DNA from: Minisyncoccota bacterium
GTDB lineage: Bacteria > Patescibacteriota > Minisyncoccia > Phycocordibacterales > UBA9973
Assembly: GCA_039915165.1 (NCBI GenBank)
Contig: JBDSNU010000017.1
Location: forward strand, 68,041-119,155
Reading direction: 5' to 3'
Length of the DNA stretch: 51,115 bases
Positions 7,166-37,668 of the stretch are shown here, in pieces. Position numbers and translations under genes: made by a program. The first letter of the stretch is position 1, and each line of letters begins with the position of its first letter. The notes under the pieces are model-generated. The model was not told where the DNA came from and searched no databases. It saw only the letters and a list, made by a program, of their open reading frames with translations.

Positions 7166-7196
7166 ATTTTCTTATTTATGCTATAGTGTTTGAACT

Positions 7197-7274
7197 ATGA
7201 ACAAGAAACGAAAAATTGCCGCAAAAAAGAAGCGCAAGGCAGATGGTAAGACTGTATCTTTGAGACATCGCTAG
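7197..7274 (+). CDS. Unannotated 25-aa highly basic micro-protein MNKKRKIAAKKKRKADGKTVSLRHR
   Basis: Manual translation; TGcTATAGT extended -10 at 7179-7187; bounded by terminators on both sides. Confidence 0.6.
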   Translation: MNKKRKIAAKKKRKADGKTVSLRHR

Positions 7275-7284
7275 ATGGCTCAAA

Positions 7285-7306
7285 CCCTGAAAACGTAGTT
7301 GAAGGG
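7285..7306. repeat. REP-like palindromic element CCCTGA-aaacgtagtt-GAAGGG
   Basis: Same CCTGA...GAAGG core as 246-275, again between a stop codon and a terminator. Confidence 0.45.
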
Positions 7307-7321
7307 CACGATTCTAAACGC

Positions 7322-7350
7322 TAAAAACGCCCTTTATAAGGGCGTTTTTA
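7322..7350. terminator. Intrinsic terminator (bidirectional type)
   Basis: TAAAAACGCCCTT-tat-AAGGGCGTTTTTA perfect stem. Confidence 0.85.
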
Positions 7351-7368
7351 CGTGTTATAATGGGTCAT

Positions 7369-8442
7369 ATGGCGAAAGACTATTACGAGGTTTTGGGTGT
7401 AGAAAAAAAGGCTTCTAAGGATGAAATCAAGAAGGCTTTTCACAAACTTGCCCATAAGCACCACCCAGACAAAAATGGCGGTGATGACAAGAAATTCAAA
7501 GAAGTGAATGAGGCATATCAGACATTGTCTGATGACGGCAAGCGTTCACAATACGACCAGTTCGGTTCCGCTGCAGGCCCTAGTGGTTTCGGTGGGCAAG
7601 GTCCACAAGGTGGAGGGTTTGAAGATTTTGATTTCTCACAGTTTACACAAGGTGGCGGATTTGATATGGGAGATATTTTTGGAGAAATGTTTGGCGGAGG
7701 GTCACGTAGTGCGCGCAACCGTCGCGGTGCGGATTTACAAACAAGTATCTCACTTGATTTTAAGGAATCAATTTTTGGCGTAGAAAAAGAAATTCGTGTT
7801 ACCAAACCCTCTACTTGTACTACTTGTCATGGTGATGGCGCAAAGCCCGGTACAAAACTACATACCTGTGATCAATGTAATGGACAAGGTGTAGTAAAAA
7901 ATATTCAGCGTACTATCCTAGGCTCAATCGCAACGACACAAATCTGTACTAAGTGTGATGGTAGTGGCAAAATCCCAGATGAGCCTTGTCAGACATGTAA
8001 AGGTAAGGGGATTGTAAATGAAGCGCGAACTATCAAAATCTCTGTGCCTGCCGGTATTCAGAATGGAGAAACACTTCGCTTGCAAGATATGGGCGAAGCC
8101 ATGAAGGGCGTGAAGTCTGGTGATCTCTATGTTCGTATCACTGTTGCTCCACACAAAACAATTACCCGTATCAACAATGATCTTGTTTCTACGCTCTCGA
8201 TCAAACTCACTGATGCATTGCTTGGTGCTCGATATGCAGTTGAAACACTCGATGGTTCTGTGTCAGTGACTGTTCCTGCGGGAACAAAAATTGGCGACAC
8301 TGTTACATTGAAAAACCATGGTGTGCCAATGAGTGCAAGAAAGCGTGGCAATTTTATTATTAAACTTAACATTTCTCTTCCAGAAAAACTTTCAAAAAAA
8401 GCGAAAGATATTATCGAAGAACTTAAAAAAGAAGGCATTTAA
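7369..8442 (+). CDS. dnaJ: Chaperone DnaJ
   Basis: J domain with HPD, G/F-rich region, four CxxCxGxG repeats; TGtTATAAT 7 nt before the ATG at 7369. Confidence 0.98.
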
Positions 8443-25056: not shown

Positions 25057-26124
25057 ATGATGCTTGATGCTATTAAAATTTTCTTACCCACAACACTCGT
25101 ATTTATTATTGGTATTGTTATTACGCCGTTCTTGACCAAGATCATGTATGATCGAAAACTTTGGAAGAAAAATAATCGCGCTCAAGAATCTGATATTACA
25201 AACAAAGATTTTGCGACTATTCATGATGGTGTAGCAGAAGTCGCTACACCGCGCGTTGGTGGAGTGATCATTTGGCTTTCAGTGCTTATTTGTATCTCAG
25301 TAATGTGGATTGTATCAAAAGCTTTTCCCACAGCATTGTTATTAAAATTAGATTTTTTTAGTAAAAACCAAACACTCGTACCATTAGCAGCACTATTGCT
25401 CGGTTCATGGATTGGTCTTGCGGATGACTTGTTACAAGTAAAAGGCACGATCGGTACTACCTCAAGTGATGTATTGGGGAATCGCTGGGTGAAAATCGCC
25501 ATGATTGTTGTTATTGGTCTTGCTGTAGCTTCGTGGTTTTATTTTAAACTTGGGGTGACAGGGATATTGATTCCATTTGTTCCTGCGATCTTCAGTTTAG
25601 GAATATTTTTTATTCCATTTTTCATAATTATCATGCTAGGCGTATTTTCAACCTCTGTAATTGATGGACTTGATGGTCTGGCTGGCGGCGTACTCGCAAT
25701 TGTTTTTGCTGCCTATGCAGTAATTGCTGCCGCGCAAAATCAAATAGATATTGCTGCTCTTTGTGCGGTGATTACAGGCGCTATTTTGGCATTTCTTTGG
25801 TTCAATATCCCACCTGCACGATTTTATATGGGGGAGACAGGCATGCTCGGGTTAACTGTAGTGCTAACTGTTATTGCATTTCTTACTAATACCGTACTAC
25901 TCCTTCCTATTATTGCATTACCGCTTACTGCAACTACTGCTTCAGTGATTATTCAAATAACTGGATATAAATATTTTGGCAAGCGTCGCGTATTTAAAGT
26001 CGCACCGCTTCATCACCATTTCCGAGCATTAGGCTGGTCAAAAGAAAAAGTAGTAATGCGATATTGGGTGGTCTCAATTATTTCTGCAATTATCGGCGTA
26101 GTCATTGCAATAATCAGTAAATAA
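25057..26124 (+). CDS. mraY: Phospho-N-acetylmuramoyl-pentapeptide transferase
   Basis: TPRVGG, GLADD, DGLDGL, FNIPPARFYMGETG, APLHHHF. Confidence 0.95.
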   Translation: MMLDAIKIFLPTTLVFIIGIVITPFLTKIMYDRKLWKKNNRAQESDITNKDFATIHDGVAEVATPRVGGVIIWLSVLICISVMWIVSKAFPTALLLKLDFFSKNQTLVPLAALLLGSWIGLADDLLQVKGTIGTTSSDVLGNRWVKIAMIVVIGLAVASWFYFKLGVTGILIPFVPAIFSLGIFFIPFFIIIMLGVFSTSVIDGLDGLAGGVLAIVFAAYAVIAAAQNQIDIAALCAVITGAILAFLWFNIPPARFYMGETGMLGLTVVLTVIAFLTNTVLLLPIIALPLTATTASVIIQITGYKYFGKRRVFKVAPLHHHFRALGWSKEKVVMRYWVVSIISAIIGVVIAIISK

Positions 26125-26125
26125 T

Positions 26126-27235
26126 ATGGTTGTAGTTAAACCTAAACAATTTGATACATATTTTTTTGGTATTGTTTTACTCATTTCCGTAATTGGTATT
26201 TTCTCATTCGTTTCTGCATCATTAGGAATTTTGGCACACAGTGAGACGAAGTTTTACGGCGTCTTGTTTGGTCAAATTGTATTAGGGTTTATCGGTGGCC
26301 TAACAGCTATGTGGTTCGCCATTAAAATCCCATATCATTTTTGGCGCAATCATGCTTTTTTTATTTTCATAGCAACATTGATTTTGACTTTAGCTGTATT
26401 TATTCCGCATCTCGGTTTCGCTCATGGTGGTGCTCGTCGCTGGATTTCTGTACTCGGCGTTTCATTTCAGCCAGCTGAATTATTAAAATTAGGATTTGTA
26501 ACGTATTTTGCTGCATGGCTTGCATGGACTAGTAAGAAGCAAGAAGAGTTTAAATATAAATTATTGCCGCTGATTATCATGCTTGGTCTTGTTGCAGGGG
26601 CATTATTGTTACAGCCTGATACAAAAAGTTTGATCCTAATTACCGCAGCTGCTTGTAGTATGTTATTTGTTTCCGGTGTATCGTGGAAGAAAATCCTCGG
26701 TATCGTTGGTATCGGTATCGTTGGCATCATCTTATTGGCACTTGTACGCCCATATCTGATGAATCGTATCAAGACATATATCAATCCTTCAAGTGATGCA
26801 CAAGGTGCTTCATATCAGCTGCAACAGGGATTAATTGCAATTGGTAGTGGTGGCTTAGTGGGAAGAGGGCTCGGTCAAAGTGTTCAAAAGTTTAATTACT
26901 TGCCTGAGCCACAAGGGGACTCAATCTATGCAGTGATTGGGGAAGAGTTTGGTTTTATCGGCAGCGCATTGCTCGTAGTGCTGTATGTCTTCCTTTCAAT
27001 TCGTGGATATAAAATTGCCATGCAGTCCCGCGATATGTTCGGGCAATATTTAGTTGTCGGTATTATTACAATACTTGTCGCACAATCATTTTTGAATATG
27101 GCATCATTGGTTGGATTATTCCCGCTGACAGGCGTTCCACTAGTCTTCATCTCACAAGGTGGCACGTCACTCCTTATCGCACTCTTTGCTTCAGGGATGG
27201 TGCTCAATGTTTCCAGATATCAAAAGAAAGTGTAA
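26126..27235 (+). CDS. ftsW: SEDS family peptidoglycan glycosyltransferase FtsW
   Basis: GARRWI, FQPAELLK, LLQPD, YLPEPQGDSIYAVIGEEFG, TGVPLVFISQGGTS; between mraY and murG. Confidence 0.93.
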   Translation: MVVVKPKQFDTYFFGIVLLISVIGIFSFVSASLGILAHSETKFYGVLFGQIVLGFIGGLTAMWFAIKIPYHFWRNHAFFIFIATLILTLAVFIPHLGFAHGGARRWISVLGVSFQPAELLKLGFVTYFAAWLAWTSKKQEEFKYKLLPLIIMLGLVAGALLLQPDTKSLILITAAACSMLFVSGVSWKKILGIVGIGIVGIILLALVRPYLMNRIKTYINPSSDAQGASYQLQQGLIAIGSGGLVGRGLGQSVQKFNYLPEPQGDSIYAVIGEEFGFIGSALLVVLYVFLSIRGYKIAMQSRDMFGQYLVVGIITILVAQSFLNMASLVGLFPLTGVPLVFISQGGTSLLIALFASGMVLNVSRYQKKV

Positions 27236-27247
27236 AATAAGGATATT

Positions 27248-28381
27248 ATGAAAATTTTGTTGATAGGTGGAGGAACTGGTGGGCACGTATATCCATTAAT
27301 TGCGATTGCAGAAGAGCTCAATCGTATTGCTGATGAAGAAAAAATTGCCAATTTTAAGTTGTATTATATGGCTGACGCGCCATTTGATCAAAAAGCACTC
27401 GATGAACAATTTATTACCTTTATTCCTATTACAGCAGGGAAGTTGCGTATATATTTTTCATTGCAAAACTTTTTTGACCTTTTTAAGACATTCTTTGGCA
27501 CTATTGGCGCTTTTTTCAAATTATTTAATCTCTACCCTGATGTCATTATTAGTAAGGGTGGCTATGCTAGTTTTCCAGTATTACTCTCTGCACGAATTTT
27601 GCGCATCCCGATTATTATTCATGAATCAGATACAGTACCAGGTCGCGTAAGTCAGTGGTCAGGCAAGTTTGCTCGACGTATTGCATTATCATACCCAGAA
27701 GCGGCACAATATTTCGATGAAAAGAAAATTGCTCTAACAGGACAGCCGGTGCGTAAGAGTATTGCATTTGCTGCTCGTGAAGGTGCAAAAGAATTCTTTG
27801 AACTTGATCCATCTTTGCCAGTGATCGGTGTTATTGGAGGATCCCAAGGTGCAAAAATTATTAATGACACTATTACTTCACTACTCGTAGAGTTGGTACA
27901 AGACTATCAAGTAATTCACCAAGCTGGCCCAAAAAATTATGAAGAAACACTTACTGATGCCGTAGTATTGTTAGGTGAAAGCACGAAGCGTACTCGTTAC
28001 AAAATTTTCCCTTATTTTAATGATCTGCAAACAAAAATGTTTGGTGGAGCTGTAGATATAATTATTTCTCGAGCAGGTTCATCTCTCTATGAGATCGCAG
28101 CTTGGGGCAAGCCTTCTATTATCATTCCTATTCCGGTAACAAATTCACATGGAGACCATCAGCGCAAAAATGCGTACCACTACGCCCGTACAGGCGCATG
28201 TGTAGTTATTGAACAAGCCAACCTTACTCCTTCGGTATTGAAAAATGAAATTGACTTACTGTTAACACACAAAGATCAATACGATGCGATGGCGGAACGT
28301 GCCAAAAACTTTTATAAGCCAGATGCAGGACGACTTATTGCTACTGAAGCAATCGCTATCGCACTACAACACGAAAAATAA
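27248..28381 (+). CDS. murG: Undecaprenyl-PP-MurNAc-pentapeptide GlcNAc transferase
   Basis: GGGTGGHVYP, KGGYAS, HESD..PG, GGSQGA, ISRAG, HQRKNA. Confidence 0.96.
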   Translation: MKILLIGGGTGGHVYPLIAIAEELNRIADEEKIANFKLYYMADAPFDQKALDEQFITFIPITAGKLRIYFSLQNFFDLFKTFFGTIGAFFKLFNLYPDVIISKGGYASFPVLLSARILRIPIIIHESDTVPGRVSQWSGKFARRIALSYPEAAQYFDEKKIALTGQPVRKSIAFAAREGAKEFFELDPSLPVIGVIGGSQGAKIINDTITSLLVELVQDYQVIHQAGPKNYEETLTDAVVLLGESTKRTRYKIFPYFNDLQTKMFGGAVDIIISRAGSSLYEIAAWGKPSIIIPIPVTNSHGDHQRKNAYHYARTGACVVIEQANLTPSVLKNEIDLLLTHKDQYDAMAERAKNFYKPDAGRLIATEAIAIALQHEK

Positions 28382-29453: not shown

Positions 29454-29528
29454 AGCATGTAAAATTATTATAATATATTGTTATTATAACACTTTTCTAT
29501 TGTCCCGCTATGTGCTTTAATGGAATAT

Positions 29529-29777
29529 ATGCATGACCATACAAACAGAACACTGATAGTAGTAATGATTATTATTCTAATTTTGATACTAGTAGCGTAC
29601 TTCCTTCCTCGCGGTGGTTATACGGCCTACTATCCAACAACTGTACAGCGTACTACTCCTGTAATCCGCACTACAGTACCAGTTGGTGGAACCCGAACTA
29701 CAACGTATACCACTACTCCTGTTACGACATATCAGGAAACCACAACAACTTCTTCACAAAACTCAGTTACAAATTAA
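29529..29777 (+). CDS. Small single-TM protein with Thr-rich tail
   Basis: Hydrophobic LIVVMIIILILILVAYFL then T-rich low-complexity tail; start 29529 or 29520. Confidence 0.65.
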   Translation: MHDHTNRTLIVVMIIILILILVAYFLPRGGYTAYYPTTVQRTTPVIRTTVPVGGTRTTTYTTTPVTTYQETTTTSSQNSVTN

Positions 29778-31630
29778 TCCTTATAAAATTCTCTTAAAAA
29801 ATGCTGCGTCTTATCTCTCTCCACAAGAGCTCGATCTGCAGATTGTTCTAGGAGGATAAGTAGTGAGTCTAAAAAGGTTACATCAGAAATGACTGTAATC
29901 TTTTTTAGTATTTCTCTCGCTACTCTTATATGTTCAAGAATAGTATGAACAACATTGTCAATATGGATTTCCCAAAAGTGCTCTTGTAACATAGAGATAT
30001 CAAGTGTTTGCAATGCTTGTATCATAGGCGCACTGATGCTGTTAACGAAGCCTTGTTCAATGTCATGGTGCCAGTCATGGGCATCATCATTAAGTTGTTT
30101 TGCGATGAGGTACTGTATGAAAAAATCCTCAATCAATATTGCTTCTTCTTTGTGTCCAAGTTTGTGACAGAGAAGGATAGGACCTATGGCATGTCCAAGT
30201 GACTTCTGTGCCAGAATCTTTTTATCGGCATAGTCCGGGATAGTTGTTGGAACGCTACCATGCTCGATTCGACAATGTGCATATTCCCATTGTGTTGCTT
30301 CATTTATTCCATCTAGTATTCTTTTTACTATTGCATATTCTTCTGTATTGCAAATAATGTGGAGAGTATCGACCATGGCCAGTATACAAATGTTTGCTAA
30401 AGGCAATTGAGATACATAGTCTTCGCCATCAATAATGTGATCATAAATACTATACCCGATCCACCCCAGTGTATTTATAACAGCTAGGTGTTGTATAAGT
30501 TCTTTGGAAATATTCCCTTGACTGATAAGTTTTTCGGCAAACCAATACGACAGTAATTGAATTTCATTTGAAGGATCTTTGGTTGTTAATGCGCCAAGTG
30601 CTTTTTGTAATTGTATTTTAAGCGCTTCATTATCAGTAATTGTAAGGCATGTGGTTGCCATGGTTCCTATAAAAATTTTTTCCTCGATATCAGGCTGAGG
30701 AGAAGAAAGATGGGCAATAGACTTTTGGCTGAATACTGTTAAGGCCTCAATACAGCACATACTGACATATGCATCACAACTGCTATAAGTAGTTGTATTA
30801 TTTACAATACTCTCAATATAGATATCTGTTGCAGGCCACTGGCCCTTAGTATGTGATCGAAGTATATAATCGATCGCTCGTTCAAGTGATTCAAACGGCA
30901 CATCGTTACTCAATAGTATAGTGATTACAAATGCAGTATGTAAAGGAGAGTTCCAGTGGCCGGCACTATTTTGCATTGCCAGAATTTTTTCAATTACGTC
31001 TTTTTTATATATGCCATTATATGTTTTTGTAATGAAATATAAGCGAGTAATTTCATCATGATAATACGTTGATTTTGTACCGATGTGTATAGTGTGGTCG
31101 AAATACGTTTCCAGTGTAGGAAGAGTAATATTCAACATATGTAAAAAAGTAGCAACATTACTGTTTACTACAACATCGCTCTCTTGCCAGACAGGATTCT
31201 TCAGATCAGTAATCCATGTTTTATATGGACCGCCCGGTAGAGTTTCTTGTTGTATTAAAAGTTCAATAAGTCGCGCGACTACTTCTTCTGTGACAAATTC
31301 TGGCGCCGATTTGTATAGTGCTTGCATGGCAACAAAAGTGTCGTCGATATCATCAGGGTAGGGAATGGTGCTGTACTCGGCACTATTTCTTTGCCAATAG
31401 TTTACTGTGTACTGAGGTGAGAGCTGTTGAAGAATACATGCCGCTGCCTTCTTTTGAATCGATGACCATATTGAGTGATCATTACTGGTTGCAGTAGATA
31501 AGATCAGGCTGGTATAAAACGTTGTTGGTTTGCCTGTATTACTTAAAAAACTACCATTAGTTTGTTGTTGCCTGGCAATAAAATCATATGAATCATTAAT
31601 GGTTTGTTGAATGTGTTTGGTCGGTATCAT
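29774..31630 (-). CDS. Fusion of class II terpene-cyclase/prenyltransferase-beta-like (alpha/alpha barrel) domain and class I isoprenoid-synthase/ComQ-like prenyltransferase domain
   Basis: N-half: QW-like repeats (RQQQTNGSF, AMQNSAGHW, YILRSHTKGQW) and YPDDIDDT (DxDD). C-half: IYDHIIDGE (FARM-like), LAQKS, QLNDDAHDWHHDIEQGFVN (SARM-like). Likely start MIPTK at 31630 overlapping the kinase 3' end. Confidence 0.8.
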   Translation of the reverse strand: MIPTKHIQQTINDSYDFIARQQQTNGSFLSNTGKPTTFYTSLILSTATSNDHSIWSSIQKKAAACILQQLSPQYTVNYWQRNSAEYSTIPYPDDIDDTFVAMQALYKSAPEFVTEEVVARLIELLIQQETLPGGPYKTWITDLKNPVWQESDVVVNSNVATFLHMLNITLPTLETYFDHTIHIGTKSTYYHDEITRLYFITKTYNGIYKKDVIEKILAMQNSAGHWNSPLHTAFVITILLSNDVPFESLERAIDYILRSHTKGQWPATDIYIESIVNNTTTYSSCDAYVSMCCIEALTVFSQKSIAHLSSPQPDIEEKIFIGTMATTCLTITDNEALKIQLQKALGALTTKDPSNEIQLLSYWFAEKLISQGNISKELIQHLAVINTLGWIGYSIYDHIIDGEDYVSQLPLANICILAMVDTLHIICNTEEYAIVKRILDGINEATQWEYAHCRIEHGSVPTTIPDYADKKILAQKSLGHAIGPILLCHKLGHKEEAILIEDFFIQYLIAKQLNDDAHDWHHDIEQGFVNSISAPMIQALQTLDISMLQEHFWEIHIDNVVHTILEHIRVAREILKKITVISDVTFLDSLLILLEQSADRALVERDKTQHFLREFYKD

Positions 31631-33058
31631 ATAAGGGTAGCGATATAATAAATTGTGTCCCAGTACCTTGAGTGCTATATACAACTATTGTTCCATTAAA
31701 TTCATCTTCAATAATTTCTTTTGTTTGAGATAATCCAAACCCTGTTCCTTTCTCATATGTTTTGGTGGTGAAAAAGACAGTAAATATATGCTTTTGTGTC
31801 TCCTCACTCATTCCGCACCCATTATCACTAATAGTAATCTGTAACGAATTAGTATCATGATTAATTTCTTGTGAGATGAGAATTTTCCCTGTCGATGCTC
31901 TATCCTCACATGCTTCAATTGCATTCATAAGTATATTCAAGATAGCTTGATAAAACTTAATTGCATTACCTTGAATCGTGATGGTACCACTACTGATGTG
32001 CTGTATTTCTACATTTGCTTCACGTGCTTTATATTGGACCATATCAATAGCATCCAAGATCTCTTGTTCAGGAGAAAAAAGAGTGCAGTCATCTCTAGTG
32101 CTAATTTGTTTTCGCACTGTTTCAATATAACTCCCCATGCGTTTACTGGCAGTCACCGCTTTGGCAATGTGTTCTTTTACTTCCGGCACATGCTCTGGCG
32201 AATGCTCCAGCCGCTCGACATTATTTGCCACACTATGCAGCGAATTCATGAGATCATGAAATATGCCAGTCGAAAGTTTGCCGAATTCTGCAAAACGATA
32301 CAGCTGCGATATTTTTTCTTTTTGTAACTCCTTTAATTCGCTTGTTCGTTCTTCAACCTTGATTTCCAATAGATTTCTTTCTTCCAGTAATGCTTGTTCA
32401 GAAATACGTGCTCTATGTAGCGAGCGTTCCATTTCGCGATTAGAAAGCCAAGAGACAGCAGTAATCACAAACAATACAAAAGATAGTTGAATGGGTTCAT
32501 GCATGGAGATCCAAGCATGCTTCCAAGATAGATTGGCATGAATAATTTTTTCAATTTGTAAATAAGAAACTGAACAGATAGTGGCAATGTTAATAATAGT
32601 TACAATTACAGAAAATCTTGTTGAAACTAAAATACCTGCAAAGACAATAATTAAAACATAACTAATACCTATAAATGGTAACCATATTGACCATTCAATC
32701 GCACCATATGTTGTACCGATAAAATAAATTAATAGAAGTAAAAAACTACTAAGTTTATGGTGTCCCTTACGTGACAATGCAAGCAAACAAATATTATAAT
32801 AAGGAGAGTGAAATAGGTAAACGGAATTCCATCATAAAGTGCACCCTTACTTATTGCTGCAAGTCCAATGTATATGTCTAGTACAATCAATAGTCCAGTT
32901 ATACAACATAATAATGTATTTAGAATAAATTCATTGCGTTTTATGTCCTCATTCTCTGAGTGTGGTTCAATAAATACCGCATACATAAAATGAATACCGT
33001 GCCGAATCCAAGCCTTAATGCTGAAATGGGCTAGACTGTTTCGATGGCGGGTATTCAT
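31596..33058 (-). CDS. Multi-TM sensor histidine kinase, split by an apparent 1-nt frameshift near 32786
   Basis: H-box FHDLMNSL, N-box NILMNAIEA, DNGCGM, FFTTK, GTGFGL, GTQF. ORFs 32729-33058 and 31596-32786 join (..IIFV|LLALSRKG..) if one T is added in TTTGTTTG. Confidence 0.88.
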
Positions 33059-33078: not shown

Positions 33079-33195
33079 TTAATTTTCTCCACCTTCCCAG
33101 GGTAAAAAACTCCCTTCAGAATAGGCCGCCTGTTTTGCCTTTTCTGCAGTGCGAGAATGTGGAGTGGTAAGGATGGCTTCAATGACTTTGTTCAT
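33079..33195 (-). CDS. Unannotated 38-aa peptide MNKVIEAILTTPHSRTAEKAKQAAYSEGSFLPWEGGEN, candidate ComX-like pheromone/RiPP precursor
   Basis: Manual translation; fills the regulator-kinase gap on the same strand; TATACT -10 at 33250-33245; single Trp near the C-terminus. Confidence 0.7.
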   Translation of the reverse strand: MNKVIEAILTTPHSRTAEKAKQAAYSEGSFLPWEGGEN

Positions 33196-33288: not shown

Positions 33289-33963
33289 CTATCTCATTAA
33301 GTCTATCTTATATCCACGACCAGGCACACTGTGGATTAGTTTGGTTTTGTCTGGCATTTCAATTTTCTTTCTTAGATTAAGAATATGTGTCTCAATAGTA
33401 TTTGAAAAAGGGTCTAAGTCAAGGTCCCAGATATGCTCCATGATTTGACCGCGAGTAACAACAACTGACTTATGCTTAAGCATATATTCTAGTAATGAAA
33501 ATTCTTTGCGAGTGAGGTATATGGATTTGCCATCACGGGCAACTGTTTGTTTGGCTGAGTCGAGAATAAGGTCATCGATAGCCATAAGTGAACTTTGTAT
33601 AGTATGTGGGCGACGTAGTACGGCTTGTATACGCGCATGTAATTCTTCAAAAGAAAATGGTTTTGAAACGTAGTCATCTGCTCCAACATTGAGCCCACGA
33701 ACTTTGTAAGGAGTAGAGTCAGATACTGACATCATGATGATCGGCGTAGTATAGTCAGACAATCGCAAATCCTCACACACAGCGAAGCCATTTTTCTCGG
33801 GTAGGGAATAGTCAAGCAATATAAGGTCATACTCATTGGTTTTAGCCAAATAAATTCCTCTGGTTCCAGTGTCAGCAATATCAACAGCAAAGCCTTTTTC
33901 CTTGAGGCGCTCTCTGAGGTAGTCTTGTGTGTCCGGCTGGTCTTCTATAACTAAAATACGCAT
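33289..33963 (-). CDS. OmpR/PhoB-family response regulator
   Basis: MRILVIED, LILLD (phospho-Asp), GADDYVSKPF, LTRKEFSLLEY, IETHILNLRKKI, VPGRGY. Confidence 0.96.
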   Translation of the reverse strand: MRILVIEDQPDTQDYLRERLKEKGFAVDIADTGTRGIYLAKTNEYDLILLDYSLPEKNGFAVCEDLRLSDYTTPIIMMSVSDSTPYKVRGLNVGADDYVSKPFSFEELHARIQAVLRRPHTIQSSLMAIDDLILDSAKQTVARDGKSIYLTRKEFSLLEYMLKHKSVVVTRGQIMEHIWDLDLDPFSNTIETHILNLRKKIEMPDKTKLIHSVPGRGYKIDLMR

Positions 33964-34058: not shown

Positions 34059-34119
34059 TTGACAAAAAAGCCACTATTGAATACTATTCGAACAGCTAAT
34101 AGTTAGTTTAGCTAAGTAA
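34059..34119 (+). promoter_or_regulatory. Promoter TTGACA-N17-TACTAT with overlapping MarR-type operators
   Basis: -35 at 34059-34064, -10 at 34082-34087; inverted repeats ACTATT-N9-AATAGT (34083-34103) and ATAGTTAG-N5-CTAAGTAA (34099-34119). Confidence 0.65.
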
Positions 34120-34550
34120 TGGCCACAATACCGACACAATCATTTGATATAAAGGAGTTGCAGGAACTTATTGGTATCTTCAAGAGAACCATGAGTGACT
34201 TATACAAAAAAGAAACAAGCGTACTGCATTGTTCTCTTTCGCATTTGGAAGTAATGCAATTTATTGGCGAACATACCAACCCTTCTATGAAGGATATTGC
34301 GAGTTACCTGCGCATCACACCACCTTCTGTGACTACAATTATCGAAACAATGGTGGAGCAAGGGTTGGTCAAGCGTGATACTGGCTCAGGTGATCGCCGT
34401 ACTATTCATGTAGTATTGACTCCCAAAGCAGTGAAGCTTTCAACCACACTGCGTGCAAAAAAAAAGGCCATGCTTACGCTTATGCTAAAGAAATTAAGCG
34501 CTGAACAAAAACAACAGTTATCAGATATTATTAAAGCTCTCGTCAAATAA
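34119..34550 (+). CDS. MarR-family transcriptional regulator
   Basis: SMKDIASYLRITPPSVTTIIETMVEQGLVKR...DRR..HVVLT. Confidence 0.93.
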   Translation: MATIPTQSFDIKELQELIGIFKRTMSDLYKKETSVLHCSLSHLEVMQFIGEHTNPSMKDIASYLRITPPSVTTIIETMVEQGLVKRDTGSGDRRTIHVVLTPKAVKLSTTLRAKKKAMLTLMLKKLSAEQKQQLSDIIKALVK

Positions 34551-34552
34551 AT

Positions 34553-35536
34553 ATGAAATCAATTTTTAATACACCTAAAATAATTATCCCACTGGTGGCA
34601 ATTATTGCTATCGTTGCCGGAGTAGTTGCATTCCGCACAGTAGGCAAGGCGCCTATAGTAAACCTTCCTGCAGTTTCTGAAGTTACTGCTTCTGGAACTA
34701 TCGTTACTAATTCATCCGACAATACAGTTGATCTGGCATTTCCGAAAAGTGGACGTGTAGCATCTGTATCAGTAAAAGTAGGTGATCATGTTGTTGCTGG
34801 TCAAACGCTGGCAGCACTTGATGCTGGCGATGCAGCAGGAGTAGTAACACAGGCAAAAGGGGCACTTGAACTCGCAGAAGCACAATATGCTTCTCAAGAT
34901 GTGCAATACGCCAATGCAAAGAAACAGCAAGATGTACTTGTACAGAATGCTCTTCGTACTGTTCGATCAAGTGGAATTGTTGCAACGCCTACAGTTCAGG
35001 ATGACAGTCACATTCCGCTTATCACAGGTACATATACCTGTAGTGCAGAAGGATCATATGTAATAACCCCATATCCATCTGGTGCTAACTCAGGATTCTC
35101 ATTTACCTATAGCGGTCTTGAAAGTGGTAGTGGAGTAGTAACATTTAGTACACCTCAGCCACTTGGTTCTTGTGGTCTATATGTACAGTTCACTCAAGGG
35201 TTTGCTGGCGCAACGAAATGGACTATTGATGTTCCAAATACAAAGTCAGCTACCTATGTAACTAATAAAAACAATTATGATCTTGCTGTAACGACTCGCG
35301 ATCAAGTGCTTAGTCAATTTGCAGCAAACCTTGGACAAAATGGTTCATCTGCTGCGAATACTGCAAAGGCTGCTATTGATACTGCGCGTGGCGTATATCA
35401 GGCCGCACTAGGCGCATACAAAAACAATGTCATCGTTGCTCCTACAAGCGGCACAGTATCGTTCATTGATGCAGATCTAAAAGCTGGGCAGTCAGTTACT
35501 CAGAGCAAAACAGTTATCAGTCTTACTACAAAATAA
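34553..35536 (+). CDS. HlyD/membrane-fusion-like protein with inserted disulfide-containing beta domain
   Basis: N-terminal TM, LAFPKSGRVASVSVKVGDHV lipoyl half, coiled coil, C-terminal IVAPTSGTV; insert with two Cys. Confidence 0.8.
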   Translation: MKSIFNTPKIIIPLVAIIAIVAGVVAFRTVGKAPIVNLPAVSEVTASGTIVTNSSDNTVDLAFPKSGRVASVSVKVGDHVVAGQTLAALDAGDAAGVVTQAKGALELAEAQYASQDVQYANAKKQQDVLVQNALRTVRSSGIVATPTVQDDSHIPLITGTYTCSAEGSYVITPYPSGANSGFSFTYSGLESGSGVVTFSTPQPLGSCGLYVQFTQGFAGATKWTIDVPNTKSATYVTNKNNYDLAVTTRDQVLSQFAANLGQNGSSAANTAKAAIDTARGVYQAALGAYKNNVIVAPTSGTVSFIDADLKAGQSVTQSKTVISLTTK

Positions 35537-35540
35537 ATTT

Positions 35541-36176
35541 ATGGAACAAACTAAAAAAGAAGGTATTTTTTCAAAACCATGGGTGCAGAGCCTTGTCGGC
35601 GTTATCGTCATTGTACTCGCACTTATTGGAGTATTAGTATGGAAGTCTCTTACATCTCATGTATCAATTGATAAGTCCCAGATCACCGCACCAACTATTA
35701 CCATCGGTCCAGAAGTATCTGGTATCTTGGCAGAAGTATATGTAAAACCAGGAGACTTGGTTACAGTAGACGAACCCATTGCTCGTGTTGGTAGTGAAAT
35801 CTTGTCTGCCAAAATTGCCGGTATTGTCATCACTACACAAAACACACCCGGACAAGTATTTGCTCCCGGTATGCCAGTGGTAACAATGATTGACCCAACT
35901 GCATTGCGTGTTGTTGGAACTATTGCTGAAGATAAAGGTCTTTCAGATCTCAAGATTGGTCAGCCAATAACATTTACAGTGGACGCATATGGTAGTCAGA
36001 AATTCACTGGAATCATTGACGAGATCAGTCCTACTTCAAATGATTCAGGTGTTGCATTTACTATTTCTGATCAGCGCGAAACAAAGAACTTCACAGTGAA
36101 GGCACGCTTTGATGTTAGTGCTCATCCTGAATTTAAGAACGGCATGTCAGCTAAGATGACTGTCTATATAAAGTAA
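35541..36176 (+). CDS. Short EmrA/HlyD-family membrane fusion protein (no helical hairpin)
   Basis: TM, SGILAEVYVKPGDLV joined directly to LSAKIAGIV, beta-barrel LKIGQPITFTVDAY. Confidence 0.85.
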   Translation: MEQTKKEGIFSKPWVQSLVGVIVIVLALIGVLVWKSLTSHVSIDKSQITAPTITIGPEVSGILAEVYVKPGDLVTVDEPIARVGSEILSAKIAGIVITTQNTPGQVFAPGMPVVTMIDPTALRVVGTIAEDKGLSDLKIGQPITFTVDAYGSQKFTGIIDEISPTSNDSGVAFTISDQRETKNFTVKARFDVSAHPEFKNGMSAKMTVYIK

Positions 36177-36177
36177 T

Positions 36178-37668
36178 ATGGAGACTACAGTTGAAAAGAA
36201 AGATACCCTCAAGTGGTGGATTCTAGTCACTGTTATTGTCGGAACATTTCTCGGACGTCTCGATCAAACTATTGTTAACCTGGCATTGCCAAACATCATT
36301 AGTGATTTTCGTATCAGTGTTAGTTCTGCTGGATGGATTGCCACTGCATACATTCTAGCGAATGCGATCTTTGTGCCTATTTGGGGTAAGCTTGGAGATA
36401 CTATCGGACGTAAAAAAGTCTATATCATTGGCTTCACAGTATTCATCATTGGATCAGTATTGGCTGGTTTTGCCTGGAACCTCCCATCGATGATTGTATT
36501 TCGCGTTATCCAAGCGATTGCTGGTTCTGCTGACTATCCCACAGCTATGGCAATTCTTGCAGTGACTTTCAAGGAAGGCAAAGAACGCGGACAAGCACTC
36601 GGTATCTGGTCTAGTTCATTTGCTGCGGCTAGTGTGTTCGGACCACTATTGGGAGGTCCATTGATTGATCACTTCGGTTGGCGTTCAGTATTTTTGATCA
36701 ACCTACCAGTTGGTATTGTGGGATTACTGATGGCGATGAAATACATCCATGAGTCTCGCTCTGAAATAAAGTCCACATTCTTTGACTGGTGGGGCGCTAT
36801 TACTCTTGGTGGAATGCTTTCATCACTTGTACTTGTGCTTGATAAAGGTGCTGAGTGGGGATGGATGTCAGTATCAAGTTTGATTTGTTACTTCTTGATT
36901 GTTGTTCTTACAGGGTTATTTATCCGCATTGAAAATAATGTATCTGAACCGATTGTTGATCTACGTTTCTTCAAGATTCCTGCATTTGTTAATACACTCG
37001 TCAACAACTTTGTAGTCTTCATGGGATTGATGGGTGGATTGTTCTTGTTGCCAGTTTTTGCTCAAACCTTCCTTGGATACAATGCAACACAAACAGGATA
37101 CTTGTTTATGCCAATGGCTGCCGCACTCATGTTGGGTGCGCCTATTGGTGGTGCATTAGCTGGTAAGGTACAAGCTCGCTATGTAATTTTTGCTAGTACC
37201 ATTGTTACTGCAATAGGGCTCTATATGTTTTCTTTCTTGGATCCGAAATCGACCGCACTGAGTTTGATGATCCCGCTGTGTGTTATGGCATTTGGTCTTG
37301 GCTTCGGTATGGCGCAACGTACAAACGTTATCGCTTCTGTTGTTGATCAGCATGAAATTGGTATTGCATCATCGATCCTTGCACTCGCACGTAATGTTGC
37401 CGGTGCATTTGGTATTGCAGTATTTGGTACCATTCTGACAAATCGTACAAAGGCAAACATTATGAGTATCAATAGTTTTAGTCATCTTTATAGTCACACA
37501 CCATTGAATATTCAAAAGTTTATTACATTGATTGAACTTAAGGCGCAAATTAATGCCTATAACTATGTCTTCGTAGTGGTGAGTATAGTGGTGGCGGTCG
37601 GAGCATTCTCCGTGCTATGGCTCAAATTAAAAAATGAACGAACAGATATTACTGTACATGTAGAATAA
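36178..37668 (+). CDS. DHA2 (EmrB/QacA-type) MFS efflux transporter
   Basis: LDQTIVNLALP, WIATAYIL, GKLGDTIGRKK, GPLLGG, WRSVFLINLPVG. Confidence 0.93.
   Translation: METTVEKKDTLKWWILVTVIVGTFLGRLDQTIVNLALPNIISDFRISVSSAGWIATAYILANAIFVPIWGKLGDTIGRKKVYIIGFTVFIIGSVLAGFAWNLPSMIVFRVIQAIAGSADYPTAMAILAVTFKEGKERGQALGIWSSSFAAASVFGPLLGGPLIDHFGWRSVFLINLPVGIVGLLMAMKYIHESRSEIKSTFFDWWGAITLGGMLSSLVLVLDKGAEWGWMSVSSLICYFLIVVLTGLFIRIENNVSEPIVDLRFFKIPAFVNTLVNNFVVFMGLMGGLFLLPVFAQTFLGYNATQTGYLFMPMAAALMLGAPIGGALAGKVQARYVIFASTIVTAIGLYMFSFLDPKSTALSLMIPLCVMAFGLGFGMAQRTNVIASVVDQHEIGIASSILALARNVAGAFGIAVFGTILTNRTKANIMSINSFSHLYSHTPLNIQKFITLIELKAQINAYNYVFVVVSIVVAVGAFSVLWLKLKNERTDITVHVE

Follow-up and report, generated by a model that had tools for sequence, protein, structure and literature searches.

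What does an enzyme that bears the motifs of both terpene cyclases and isoprenoid synthases do in a bacterium with a 782-kb genome? The question is raised by a gene at positions 29774 to 31630 (minus strand) of a 51,115-nucleotide stretch of DNA from a Minisyncoccota bacterium (contig JBDSNU010000017.1 of GenBank assembly GCA_039915165.1, positions 68,041 to 119,155; genome 98.2% complete), referred to below as the window. A preliminary description of this gene, made from the sequence alone, had proposed that its product cyclises a prenyl diphosphate through an N-terminal DxDD motif and then transfers the prenyl group to a neighbouring peptide, as ComQ does. Our analysis suggests that a ComQ-like transfer and a cyclisation on one polypeptide were largely the right idea, and that the order of the steps, the partner peptide and the signalling context have to be revised. 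On balance, we regard the enzyme as a probable peptide maturase with two functions, of the kind in which a prenyltransferase and a terpene cyclase are fused (PC), encoded in a pheromone-like operon.

The two domains of the enzyme

The open reading frame (ORF) spans positions 29774 to 31684 on the minus strand. Its product has 618 amino acids (aa) if translation starts at the ATG at 31630, and 636 aa if it starts at a TTG; homologues begin close to the ATG form, which is used here. The features of the gene are the following.

29774 to 31630, minus strand: enzyme gene (stop codon included), whose 618-aa product joins a terpene cyclase to a prenyltransferase-like domain
30716 to 31630, minus strand: single-domain (beta) class II terpene cyclase barrel, residues 1-305 (VIA-align; profile against the PDB)
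29777 to 30694, minus strand: domain with the fold of trans-isoprenyl diphosphate synthases (abbreviated trans-IDS), a putative Trp prenyltransferase (P domain), residues 313-618 (VIA-align)
31337 to 31360, minus strand: YPDDIDDT, residues 91-98
31337 to 31351, minus strand: D94-I-D96-D97-T98 (DxDDT), with D96 aligned to the general acid of AsDMS
30428 to 30448, minus strand: IYDHIID, residues 395-401
30428 to 30442, minus strand: first Asp-rich motif, D397-H-I-I-D401, family consensus D-[D/N/K/S]-x-x-D (from conservation)
30074 to 30097, minus strand: QLNDDAHD, residues 512-519
30062 to 30097, minus strand: second Asp-rich motif with its upstream Gln, Q512-L-N-D515-D516-A-H-D519-W-H-H-D523 (from conservation and model contacts)

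The three Asp motifs of the preliminary description (YPDDIDDT, IYDHIID and QLNDDAHD) are present in the translation at exactly the coordinates that it gave, and the QW-like repeats that it had noticed correspond to three Q..G.[WFY] strings (residues 21-28, 128-136 and 220-226).

The AF2 model of the enzyme reached a predicted local distance difference test score (pLDDT) of 94.0 and a predicted template modelling score (pTM) of 0.86. It was compared by VIA-align with 48,161 chains, of which the best 50 rows were listed, and Foldseek was in agreement. Residues ~4-304 superposed on the drimenol synthase AsDMS (9mhs_B) with a Z score of 30.1 and a root-mean-square deviation (rmsd) of 2.5 Å over 275 aligned residues, the cyclase domain of AsDMS being the nearest solved structure to the N-terminal half among the matches listed. 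Further matches were the small 'SHC' 8paj_A (Z 28.2) and MstE (6sbb_A; Z 27.7, rmsd 2.7 Å over 285 residues, 14% identity). A profile of 49 family members (positions 38-310) also matched the AsDMS cyclase domain in the PDB, at 2.2e-12, and the profile alignment places D96 on D323 of AsDMS, which is described as the general acid in the available part of PMC12232559. In the 258 non-identical family members that underlie all conservation counts given here, and with the aligned positions counted off by hand, the phosphate-binding R368 of AsDMS aligns to W148 (251/258) and R370 to D/E150 (D in 248/258), while the residue opposite R415 varies (P 146, K 50 and R 21 of 258); Y416 is kept as Y189. The phosphate-binding residues being thus mostly not kept, the cyclase domain would not hold a free diphosphate in the manner of AsDMS.

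Residues 313-598 aligned best with the solanesyl-diphosphate synthase 9jqs_A (Z 23.5, rmsd 3.0 Å, 275 aligned residues); many geranylgeranyl diphosphate (GGPP) and polyprenyl synthases matched this domain with Z scores of 21-22.7 and the Trp farnesyltransferase Ord1 (9v4g_A) with 19.6. All 23 rows for the C-terminal domain among the matches listed were trans-prenyltransferases, below which class I cyclases may rank, and PF19086, which served as a test for class I cyclases, gave a weak match (E 0.0053) in only 1 of 49 members. By the matches listed, this half, at first read as a class I (DDxxD-like) enzyme, appears to resemble trans-isoprenyl diphosphate synthases and Trp prenyltransferases rather than class I cyclases. 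Taken together, the two sets of fold matches indicate that in this enzyme a class II cyclase of the single-barrel (beta) type is joined to an alpha domain with the trans-IDS fold. Neither of the findings that would have spoken against the preliminary description, mismatched folds or Asp motifs that are unconserved or away from the active site, came up, and the folds that it expected were borne out: an alpha/alpha barrel with DxDDT in one half and, in the other, an isoprenoid-synthase alpha fold with two Asp-rich motifs were found both in the model and in the Foldseek and VIA-align comparisons.

We considered the possibility that the C-terminal domain is an ordinary chain-elongating synthase. 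The corresponding family, PF00348, gave no match to it up to an E value of 10, and hhalign against the 329-aa PF00348 synthase encoded elsewhere in this genome gave a weak alignment (E 0.011, probability 3.9%) that covers the K-S...Q-L-x-DDxxD stretch only. By inspection, the family consensus has neither the GGKHFRP motif of that synthase nor its basic pair after the first Asp motif. These sequence comparisons indicate that the domain is not an ordinary chain-elongating synthase.

In the DxDDT motif, D94 and D96 are each found in 257, D97 in 243 and T98 in 253 of the 258 members; in the first Asp-rich motif D397 and D401 are each present in 257; in the second, Q512, D515, D519 and D523 are invariant (258/258) and D516 is found in 256, with D515, D519 and D523 spaced i/i+4/i+8. 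The preliminary description had called the first motif non-canonical (DHxxD), and H398 is indeed present in this copy. Yet this position varies throughout the family (D 182, N 32, K 14 and S 9 of 258), so that the conserved first motif is D-x-x-x-D. The other conserved residues are all present in this copy and its frame is intact. In 5000 shuffles of the enzyme, D.DD[TS] occurred in 2.2%, DD..D in 12% and both together in 0.6%, which makes chance a weak explanation for the co-occurrence of the Asp motifs; the decisive evidence is their conservation, the key Asp residues being found in 256-258 of the 258 homologues.

Relatives of the enzyme are numerous. A word-index search retrieved 75 proteins at E ≤0.001 (query included) with 27-53% identity, nearly all full-length; the few source names among them were Nomurabacteria, Pacebacteria, and Parcubacteria and Patescibacteria groups. 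An exhaustive search yielded 1592 cluster representatives at E ≤0.001, of which 774 at 1e-30 or better, and a scan of 185,579 species genomes yielded 276 loci with the cassette enzyme. The locus statistics reported below are for the best 80 of these 276 (L027-L106), whose record titles span many lineages of the candidate phyla radiation (CPR), whereas a first comparison set the window against 10 other loci from a sample of 301 genomes of the phylum. In that sample the enzyme was present in 12 of 301 genomes (this one included) and 11 of 248 genera, and was not found in 2 genomes of the same family, 3 of the same order and 11 of the same class.

Known families hardly cover the protein. Searched whole, it gave only two chance-level matches in Pfam (E 0.089 and 0.15), only a squalene cyclase match in NCBIfam (E 0.0017, residues 5-130, far below the cut-off) and, by phmmer, none in the PDB. 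Pfam SQHop_cyclase_C matches 13 of 49 family members, this copy not being among them. As for split forms, three short stand-alone P-domain matches were seen, all on contigs of at most 3 kb and likely truncated, so that they are no evidence for splitting.

The operon and its tryptophan peptide

The preliminary description was silent on the two-component system that accompanies the enzyme and that we rate as the strongest clue to its biological role. The cassette upstream of the enzyme gene is made up as follows.

33289 to 33963, minus strand: OmpR-type response regulator of 224 aa, first gene of the cassette (Pfam Response_reg 8.7e-29, Trans_reg_C 1.1e-23)
33079 to 33195, minus strand: precursor-like peptide of 38 aa, MNKVIEAILTTPHSRTAEKAKQAAYSEGSFLPWEGGEN, an overlooked ORF between regulator and kinase (stop codon included)
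32729 to 33058, minus strand: N-terminal membrane fragment of the histidine kinase, 109 aa (tblastn of the L027 kinase)
31596 to 32786, minus strand: main fragment of the histidine kinase, 396 aa from a TTG (Pfam HATPase_c 1.7e-23)

The main kinase fragment carries the remaining membrane helices, the H-box and the ATPase domain, and has 71% identity over 398 residues with its counterpart in the closest locus (L027); the end of its ORF overlaps the ATG start of the enzyme by 35 nt. Judged by eye from the sequences, the sensor part of the cassette kinases is purely membrane-embedded. The order regulator - kinase - enzyme, on one strand, recurs in the 10 comparison loci. Among the best 80, 72 loci have 1500 bp or more of upstream sequence, and in 70 of them (all but L066 and L100) a kinase gene on the strand of the enzyme lies directly upstream of it. 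This is also so in all 63 with at least 2600 bp, 58 of which have an OmpR-type regulator nearby as well (not seen in L034, L035, L036, L059 and L064). When transporters and peptidases were sought among the neighbours, nothing beyond kinase and regulator recurred in more than 15 of the 80 loci.

The gap of 150-400 bp between regulator and kinase contains a small ORF on the same strand in nearly every locus. An ORF of 20-80 aa with a Trp in its last 8 residues was found in 66 of 67 loci; the reverse strand had such an ORF in 12 of 67, and shuffled sequences in 17.5 of 67. A strict leader regex matched 52 of 67 loci; being too narrow, it was replaced by a hidden Markov model (HMM), which gave one match per locus in 76 of 91 sources, on the strand of the kinase and just upstream of its gene. 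These matches include L100, in which peptide and kinase are both on the opposite strand. The peptide of the window starts with the conserved leader, and its only Trp, W33, stands 5 residues before its end. The 69 distinct peptides of the family (alignment A2) are 34-40 aa long with L9, R15 and W33 invariant; 68 of them have exactly one Trp, which is followed by 1-6 residues, and in 53 it is preceded by Pro. The peptide matched no family in Pfam (E ≤0.01) or NCBIfam (E ≤1).

Prediction of an enzyme-peptide complex gave an interaction score (ipSAE, interaction prediction score from aligned errors) of 0.79 (0.78-0.80 in three runs), as compared with 0.01 for the best control; at least 61% of the contacts were common to the runs, and the pLDDT of the partner was at least 75. 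The mark used for this score is reached by 58 of 80 solved complexes and by 2 of 110 mismatched pairs, a calibration that is only rough in the present case because the inputs were alignments made here (A1 and A2). The model has the leader (residues 1-12, L9 among them) resting on the enzyme at 115-134 and 166-172 as well as on the enzyme's last helix (597-616); in it, peptide residues 24-34, W33 included, contact residues 514-521, which belong to the second Asp-rich motif, and 546-557. This model supports binding of the peptide by the enzyme without demonstrating it. Transfer to a neighbouring peptide, as first proposed, is thus backed by a conserved Trp peptide of the same operon and by the complex model, but the partner is not encoded by the adjacent gene: it lies two genes upstream, at 33079-33195, outside the coordinates that the preliminary description covered. 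We find it quite likely that the enzyme modifies W33 of this peptide with a cyclised prenyl group.

A T-rich 85-aa ORF at 29520-29777 (plus strand), convergent with the enzyme gene and sharing its end point, was considered as partner peptide and rejected, as nothing corresponding to it was present in the other 10 loci of the comparison. It encodes one membrane helix and a Thr/Pro-rich tail, and matched no Pfam family.

A divergent branch of the family is represented by L026 (5889-9647, plus strand), in which a 585-aa enzyme has a C-terminal half that the family profile does not match. The cassette order is kept there, with a regulator, a 41-aa peptide (…MVPWFNEGEPK) and a 480-aa kinase. Several records, among them L045, L047, L050, L053, L055, L073 and L074, are titled 'uncultured Gammaproteobacteria', 'Methylomirabilota' or 'Vitreimonas sp.'; the cassettes being typical of the CPR family, such labels may be mis-assignments.

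Comparison with known prenyltransferases and cyclases

The closest functional parallels are found among enzymes that prenylate tryptophan. According to the available part of PMC13290415, on which our statements about ChrPC and NctPC are based, these two proteins are prenyltransferases fused to an MstE-like cyclase; they attach a prenyl chain to the Trp of a peptide and cyclise that chain afterwards. The ChrPC P domain is described as prenylating an internal Trp with C10-C20 donors and is classed with ComQ and PalQ among the trans-IDS-like Trp prenyltransferases; ComQ, PalQ, the ChrPC P domain and Ord1 are said to share a Gln upstream of the second Asp-rich motif that aids indole recognition (PMC13290415). 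The cassette enzyme is like ChrPC, as so described, in three respects: one polypeptide combines a trans-IDS-like prenyltransferase domain with an MstE-like monodomain class II cyclase carrying DxDD; a Trp-bearing ribosomal precursor is encoded beside it, here the W33 peptide found in 66 of 67 loci, with predicted binding; and the Gln is conserved, as Q512, three residues before D515. It differs from ChrPC in that the cassette family is found in Patescibacteria with its own family of 34-40-aa precursors, and that the enzyme shares an operon with a histidine kinase and an OmpR regulator. In the cassette enzyme the cyclase domain is N-terminal.

The operon context recalls ComQXPA of Bacillus and PalP-PalX-PalQ of Paenibacillus. 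In these systems, as far as they are described in the available text of PMC10853753, an enzyme of the trans-IDS superfamily prenylates a Trp near the C-terminus of a small peptide, which is also what we predict here, and the enzyme gene lies beside that of a membrane histidine kinase, joined in ComQXPA by a regulator, in a peptide-pheromone logic; the gene of PalQ lies in a cluster with those of a histidine kinase and a precursor peptide. The cassette enzyme keeps both Asp-rich motifs, whereas ComQ is described there as being without the second. There are further differences: the cassette enzyme has an additional class II cyclase domain, and the gene order is regulator-peptide-kinase-enzyme. 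By sequence, the enzyme and the peptide do not fall into the ComQ and ComX families, as the P domain and the peptide match no Pfam or NCBIfam family; Pfam includes a ComX model. By these described features, the system can be likened to a maturase of ChrPC type set within a CPR cassette that resembles ComQXPA.

Other likenesses concern one domain only. AsDMS belongs to the HAD-TC-beta drimenol synthases (9mhs, 9m7d) and is the only significant sequence match for the N-terminal domain; its cyclase, as described in the accessible parts of PMC12232559 and PMC12365925, is likewise a stand-alone beta barrel without a gamma domain and has its general acid in the same place. In AsDMS, however, the partner of the barrel is described as an N-terminal HAD phosphatase rather than a C-terminal prenyltransferase-like alpha domain, and no HAD domain was found in the cassette enzyme, either by Pfam or in the AF2 model. 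The motif is DxDTT in AsDMS and DxDDT here, the phosphate-binding arginines are not kept, and an invariant GGPYxTW insertion is specific to the cassette enzyme family. MstE, as far as described, has a single class II barrel and cyclises a prenyl chain that is already attached to an aromatic ring; it stands alone, has a small-molecule substrate and is only distantly related in sequence (14%). With the PF00348 synthases, the C-terminal domain shares its fold and, in equivalent places, the Asp-rich motifs, the K-S/T motif and the Q-x-x-DDxxD motif, but it is not matched by PF00348 and lacks both a GGKxxRP-type motif and a basic pair following the first Asp-rich motif.

In the open-access literature searched, we found, among the papers listed, no paper tying Patescibacteria to such a peptide-prenylation/cyclase system and none joining ComQXPA with Patescibacteria; searches on CPR squalene-hopene cyclases and Patescibacteria terpene cyclases found nothing on this enzyme family.

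The proposed reaction, its prenyl donor and the alternatives

From the folds, the conservation of the motifs and of the cassette, the peptide family and the supported enzyme-peptide model, all of which are computed results, we infer the chemistry and, with it, the chain length, the order of the steps, export and processing, and sensing by the kinase. The C-terminal trans-IDS-fold domain would use its Asp-rich motifs to bind the donor, an allylic prenyl diphosphate (probably C15-C20) supplied by the separate polyprenyl synthase of the genome. With the leader of the 38-aa peptide docked in a groove that the cyclase domain forms with the enzyme's last helix, this domain would transfer the prenyl group to the indole of W33. 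The class II barrel would then protonate the distal double bond through D96 and cyclise the attached chain, giving a peptide with a polycyclic terpenoid on its Trp. Since one operon, conserved across Patescibacteria, holds the genes of the enzyme, the peptide, the polytopic membrane histidine kinase and the OmpR-type regulator, the product would most likely be a self-made signal, or at least a ligand or a regulated product of the two-component system. That it is the signal of the cassette kinase itself we rate a little short of an even possibility.

How the donor would be made is a question in its own right. The preliminary description was correct in stating that the window encodes no prenyl-diphosphate synthase: the only PF00348 match of the genome, the 329-aa synthase mentioned above, is on another contig (C8). 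PF00348 is present in 10 of 12 cassette carriers (all but G192 and G293) as compared with 126 of 301 genomes of the phylum sample, figures that are only indicative since kin are not independent. In 15 of 80 loci, a canonical PF00348 gene (matched at 8e-55 in the example of L039) directly adjoins the cassette, mostly overlapping the stop codon of the enzyme; it is located at the stop of the enzyme in 12 and between regulator and peptide in 3. In L020 (genome G212), a locus outside these 80, the order is regulator - synthase - peptide - kinase - enzyme, with the synthase at 7182-8234 (minus strand). In the present genome, family searches found no IspH, IspG, Dxr, HMG-CoA reductase or GHMP kinases, nor did UppS (PF01255) or UbiA give a match. 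Because markers of both routes to isopentenyl diphosphate (IPP) are absent, the source of the donor precursors is unexplained. Among five other cassette genomes, IspH was found in one and a GHMP kinase in one. As judged from these gene contents, the C5 precursors probably come from outside in many carriers. This makes for a metabolic puzzle, in which genomes without an IPP pathway (and, here, without UppS) retain a prenyl diphosphate synthase and a prenyl-consuming enzyme.

Wall-synthesis genes are also encoded in the window, at 25057-28381 (plus strand): a Glycos_transf_4 protein (MraY-type, by eye), a protein of the FtsW/RodA family and a GT28 (MurG-type) transferase. As UppS and the IPP markers gave no match, the source of their lipid carrier is likewise unexplained.

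Several observations weigh against the maturase reading. The P domain has no family match (none in Pfam at E ≤10, none in NCBIfam at E ≤1), and the complex predictor may be echoing PalQ/ComQ-like cases. No export or leader-cleavage gene is conserved in the cassette among the loci compared. The regulator is of OmpR type (Trans_reg_C), not a NarL-type ComA, and the kinase is of a generic AtoS/PrsK-like kind, not ComP-type, its best NCBIfam matches being AtoS and PrsK types, all far below the cut-offs; the resemblance to ComQXPA is therefore functional only and not one of orthology. In this genome, moreover, the IPP markers are missing, the kinase gene is split by a frameshift, and the second residue of the first Asp motif is a His.

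We considered the possibility that the chemistry is as proposed but that the product is no signal, being instead a bioactive or membrane-anchored lipopeptide (an antimicrobial, a host-directed compound or a surface anchor) whose production the two-component system regulates or auto-induces, as in lantibiotic systems. Operon linkage alone cannot separate 'sensed by' from 'regulated by', and in the present genome it is the kinase that is frameshifted, the peptide, enzyme and regulator being intact. The products of ChrPC and NctPC are, in work by Hubrich et al. in Chem in 2024, reportedly described as bioactive natural products. The available part of PMC13290415 treats both enzymes only as maturases of RiPPs, peptides that are made on the ribosome and modified after translation, and names no signalling role for them. 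Yet the four genes travel together over many CPR lineages without any immunity or transporter gene conserved alongside, a membrane-embedded sensor suits a lipidated ligand, and short peptides with a single modified residue resemble ComX and PalX. We therefore consider a non-signal product doubtful.

Another possibility is that the cassette is decaying and non-functional in this genome, whatever the family does elsewhere. The frameshift, of one base, lies at ~32780-32792: by tblastn, the intact 488-aa kinase of L027 matches with its residues 1-93 in frame -1 and with residues 91-487 in frame -3. The frameshifted sequence is identical, with 0 gaps, in contigs of two runs (depths 13.2 and 22.7), but both runs come from one rhizosphere study and are possibly the source of this assembly, so that they are not independent proof, and contigs conceal minority variants. 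Among the runs with this stretch no RNA run was listed, which carries no weight either way for its expression. Sensing may thus be altered or lost in this genome. H398, the missing IPP markers and the failure to find the family in the sampled relatives of the same family, order and class would also fit decay. Against it, the frames of enzyme, peptide and regulator are intact with all other conserved residues in place, intact homologues also vary at position 398, and the 396-aa kinase fragment, which could be translated from a start of its own, keeps most of the membrane helices and the whole catalytic core. We consider decay of the cassette unlikely.

The reverse order of steps, which was that of the preliminary description, would have the class II domain cyclise a free prenyl diphosphate (for example GGPP to a copalyl-type diphosphate), which the C-terminal domain would then ionise and pass on to the peptide Trp. 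The allylic diphosphate of a C20 donor survives class II cyclisation, as in labdane chemistry, and AsDMS, the nearest solved cyclase among the matches listed, is described as acting on free farnesyl diphosphate. However, W148 and D/E150 stand here in place of its R368 and R370, and the position of its R415 varies; in the C15 case, the diphosphate of a drimenyl-type product would have ceased to be allylic; MstE, the next-best structural match, is described as cyclising a prenylated aromatic compound and not a diphosphate; and ChrPC and NctPC are reported to transfer first and cyclise after (PMC13290415, available part). Cyclisation before transfer thus appears improbable, and by analogy with ChrPC, the enzyme probably transfers the prenyl group to the peptide and then cyclises it.

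The weakest alternative is a peptide-independent bifunctional synthase making a free (membrane) terpenoid under two-component control, with prenyl diphosphates elongated or ionised by the C-terminal domain and cyclised by the N-terminal one: it could draw on the fold similarity to bona fide chain-elongating synthases (Z 21-23.5), on the frequency of prenyltransferase-cyclase fusions making free terpenes (common according to the accessible part of PMC13684600) and on the use that a CPR cell incapable of lipid synthesis could make of a hopanoid-like stiffener, but it is very improbable given that PF00348 does not recognise the domain, as opposed to the cassette-adjacent synthase, that IPP-binding signatures have, on inspection, no counterpart in the family consensus, that hhalign to the genome's synthase is weak, that a separate synthase is co-encoded in 15 of 80 loci, and that a conserved Trp peptide is modelled with its Trp at the second motif.

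Returning to the maturase reading, its furthest extension is that Patescibacteria use a terpenoid-cyclised Trp peptide as a self-produced and self-sensed pheromone, with an output gated by isoprenoid precursors of the host or environment. We regard this as speculative and, taken as a whole, unlikely. Were the pheromone reading true, the signal output would be gated by precursors from the host or the surroundings, because many carriers, this genome included, cannot make IPP, and the cassette would report not only cell density but also attachment to a host or the host's physiology. A large part of bacterial diversity belongs to the Patescibacteria, most of which cannot be cultured, and we know of no signalling molecule of their own; the pheromone would then be the first chemistry for cell-cell signalling or host sensing to be put forward for these ultrasmall episymbionts. 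The conserved and widespread cassette, which brings together a precursor peptide, a probable maturase of a type discovered only recently and a dedicated sensor and regulator, is in any event a testable candidate for how CPR cells may talk to each other or read their hosts. For enzymology, it offers hundreds of natural variants of a compact cyclase-prenyltransferase with a proposed activity of lipidation and cyclisation on a short peptide.

Two minor observations may be added. Divergently from the cassette regulator, at 34119-37668 (plus strand), the window encodes a MarR regulator, two HlyD-like membrane-fusion proteins and an MFS transporter; such neighbours occur in only 4-6 of 80 loci, L027 included, and so probably reflect synteny rather than function. 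In the Atlas, PF28380 is named AstC-like_C, and look-alike clusters of 621-691 aa are found there in Bacteroidota and Chloroflexota, which we mention as a lead only.

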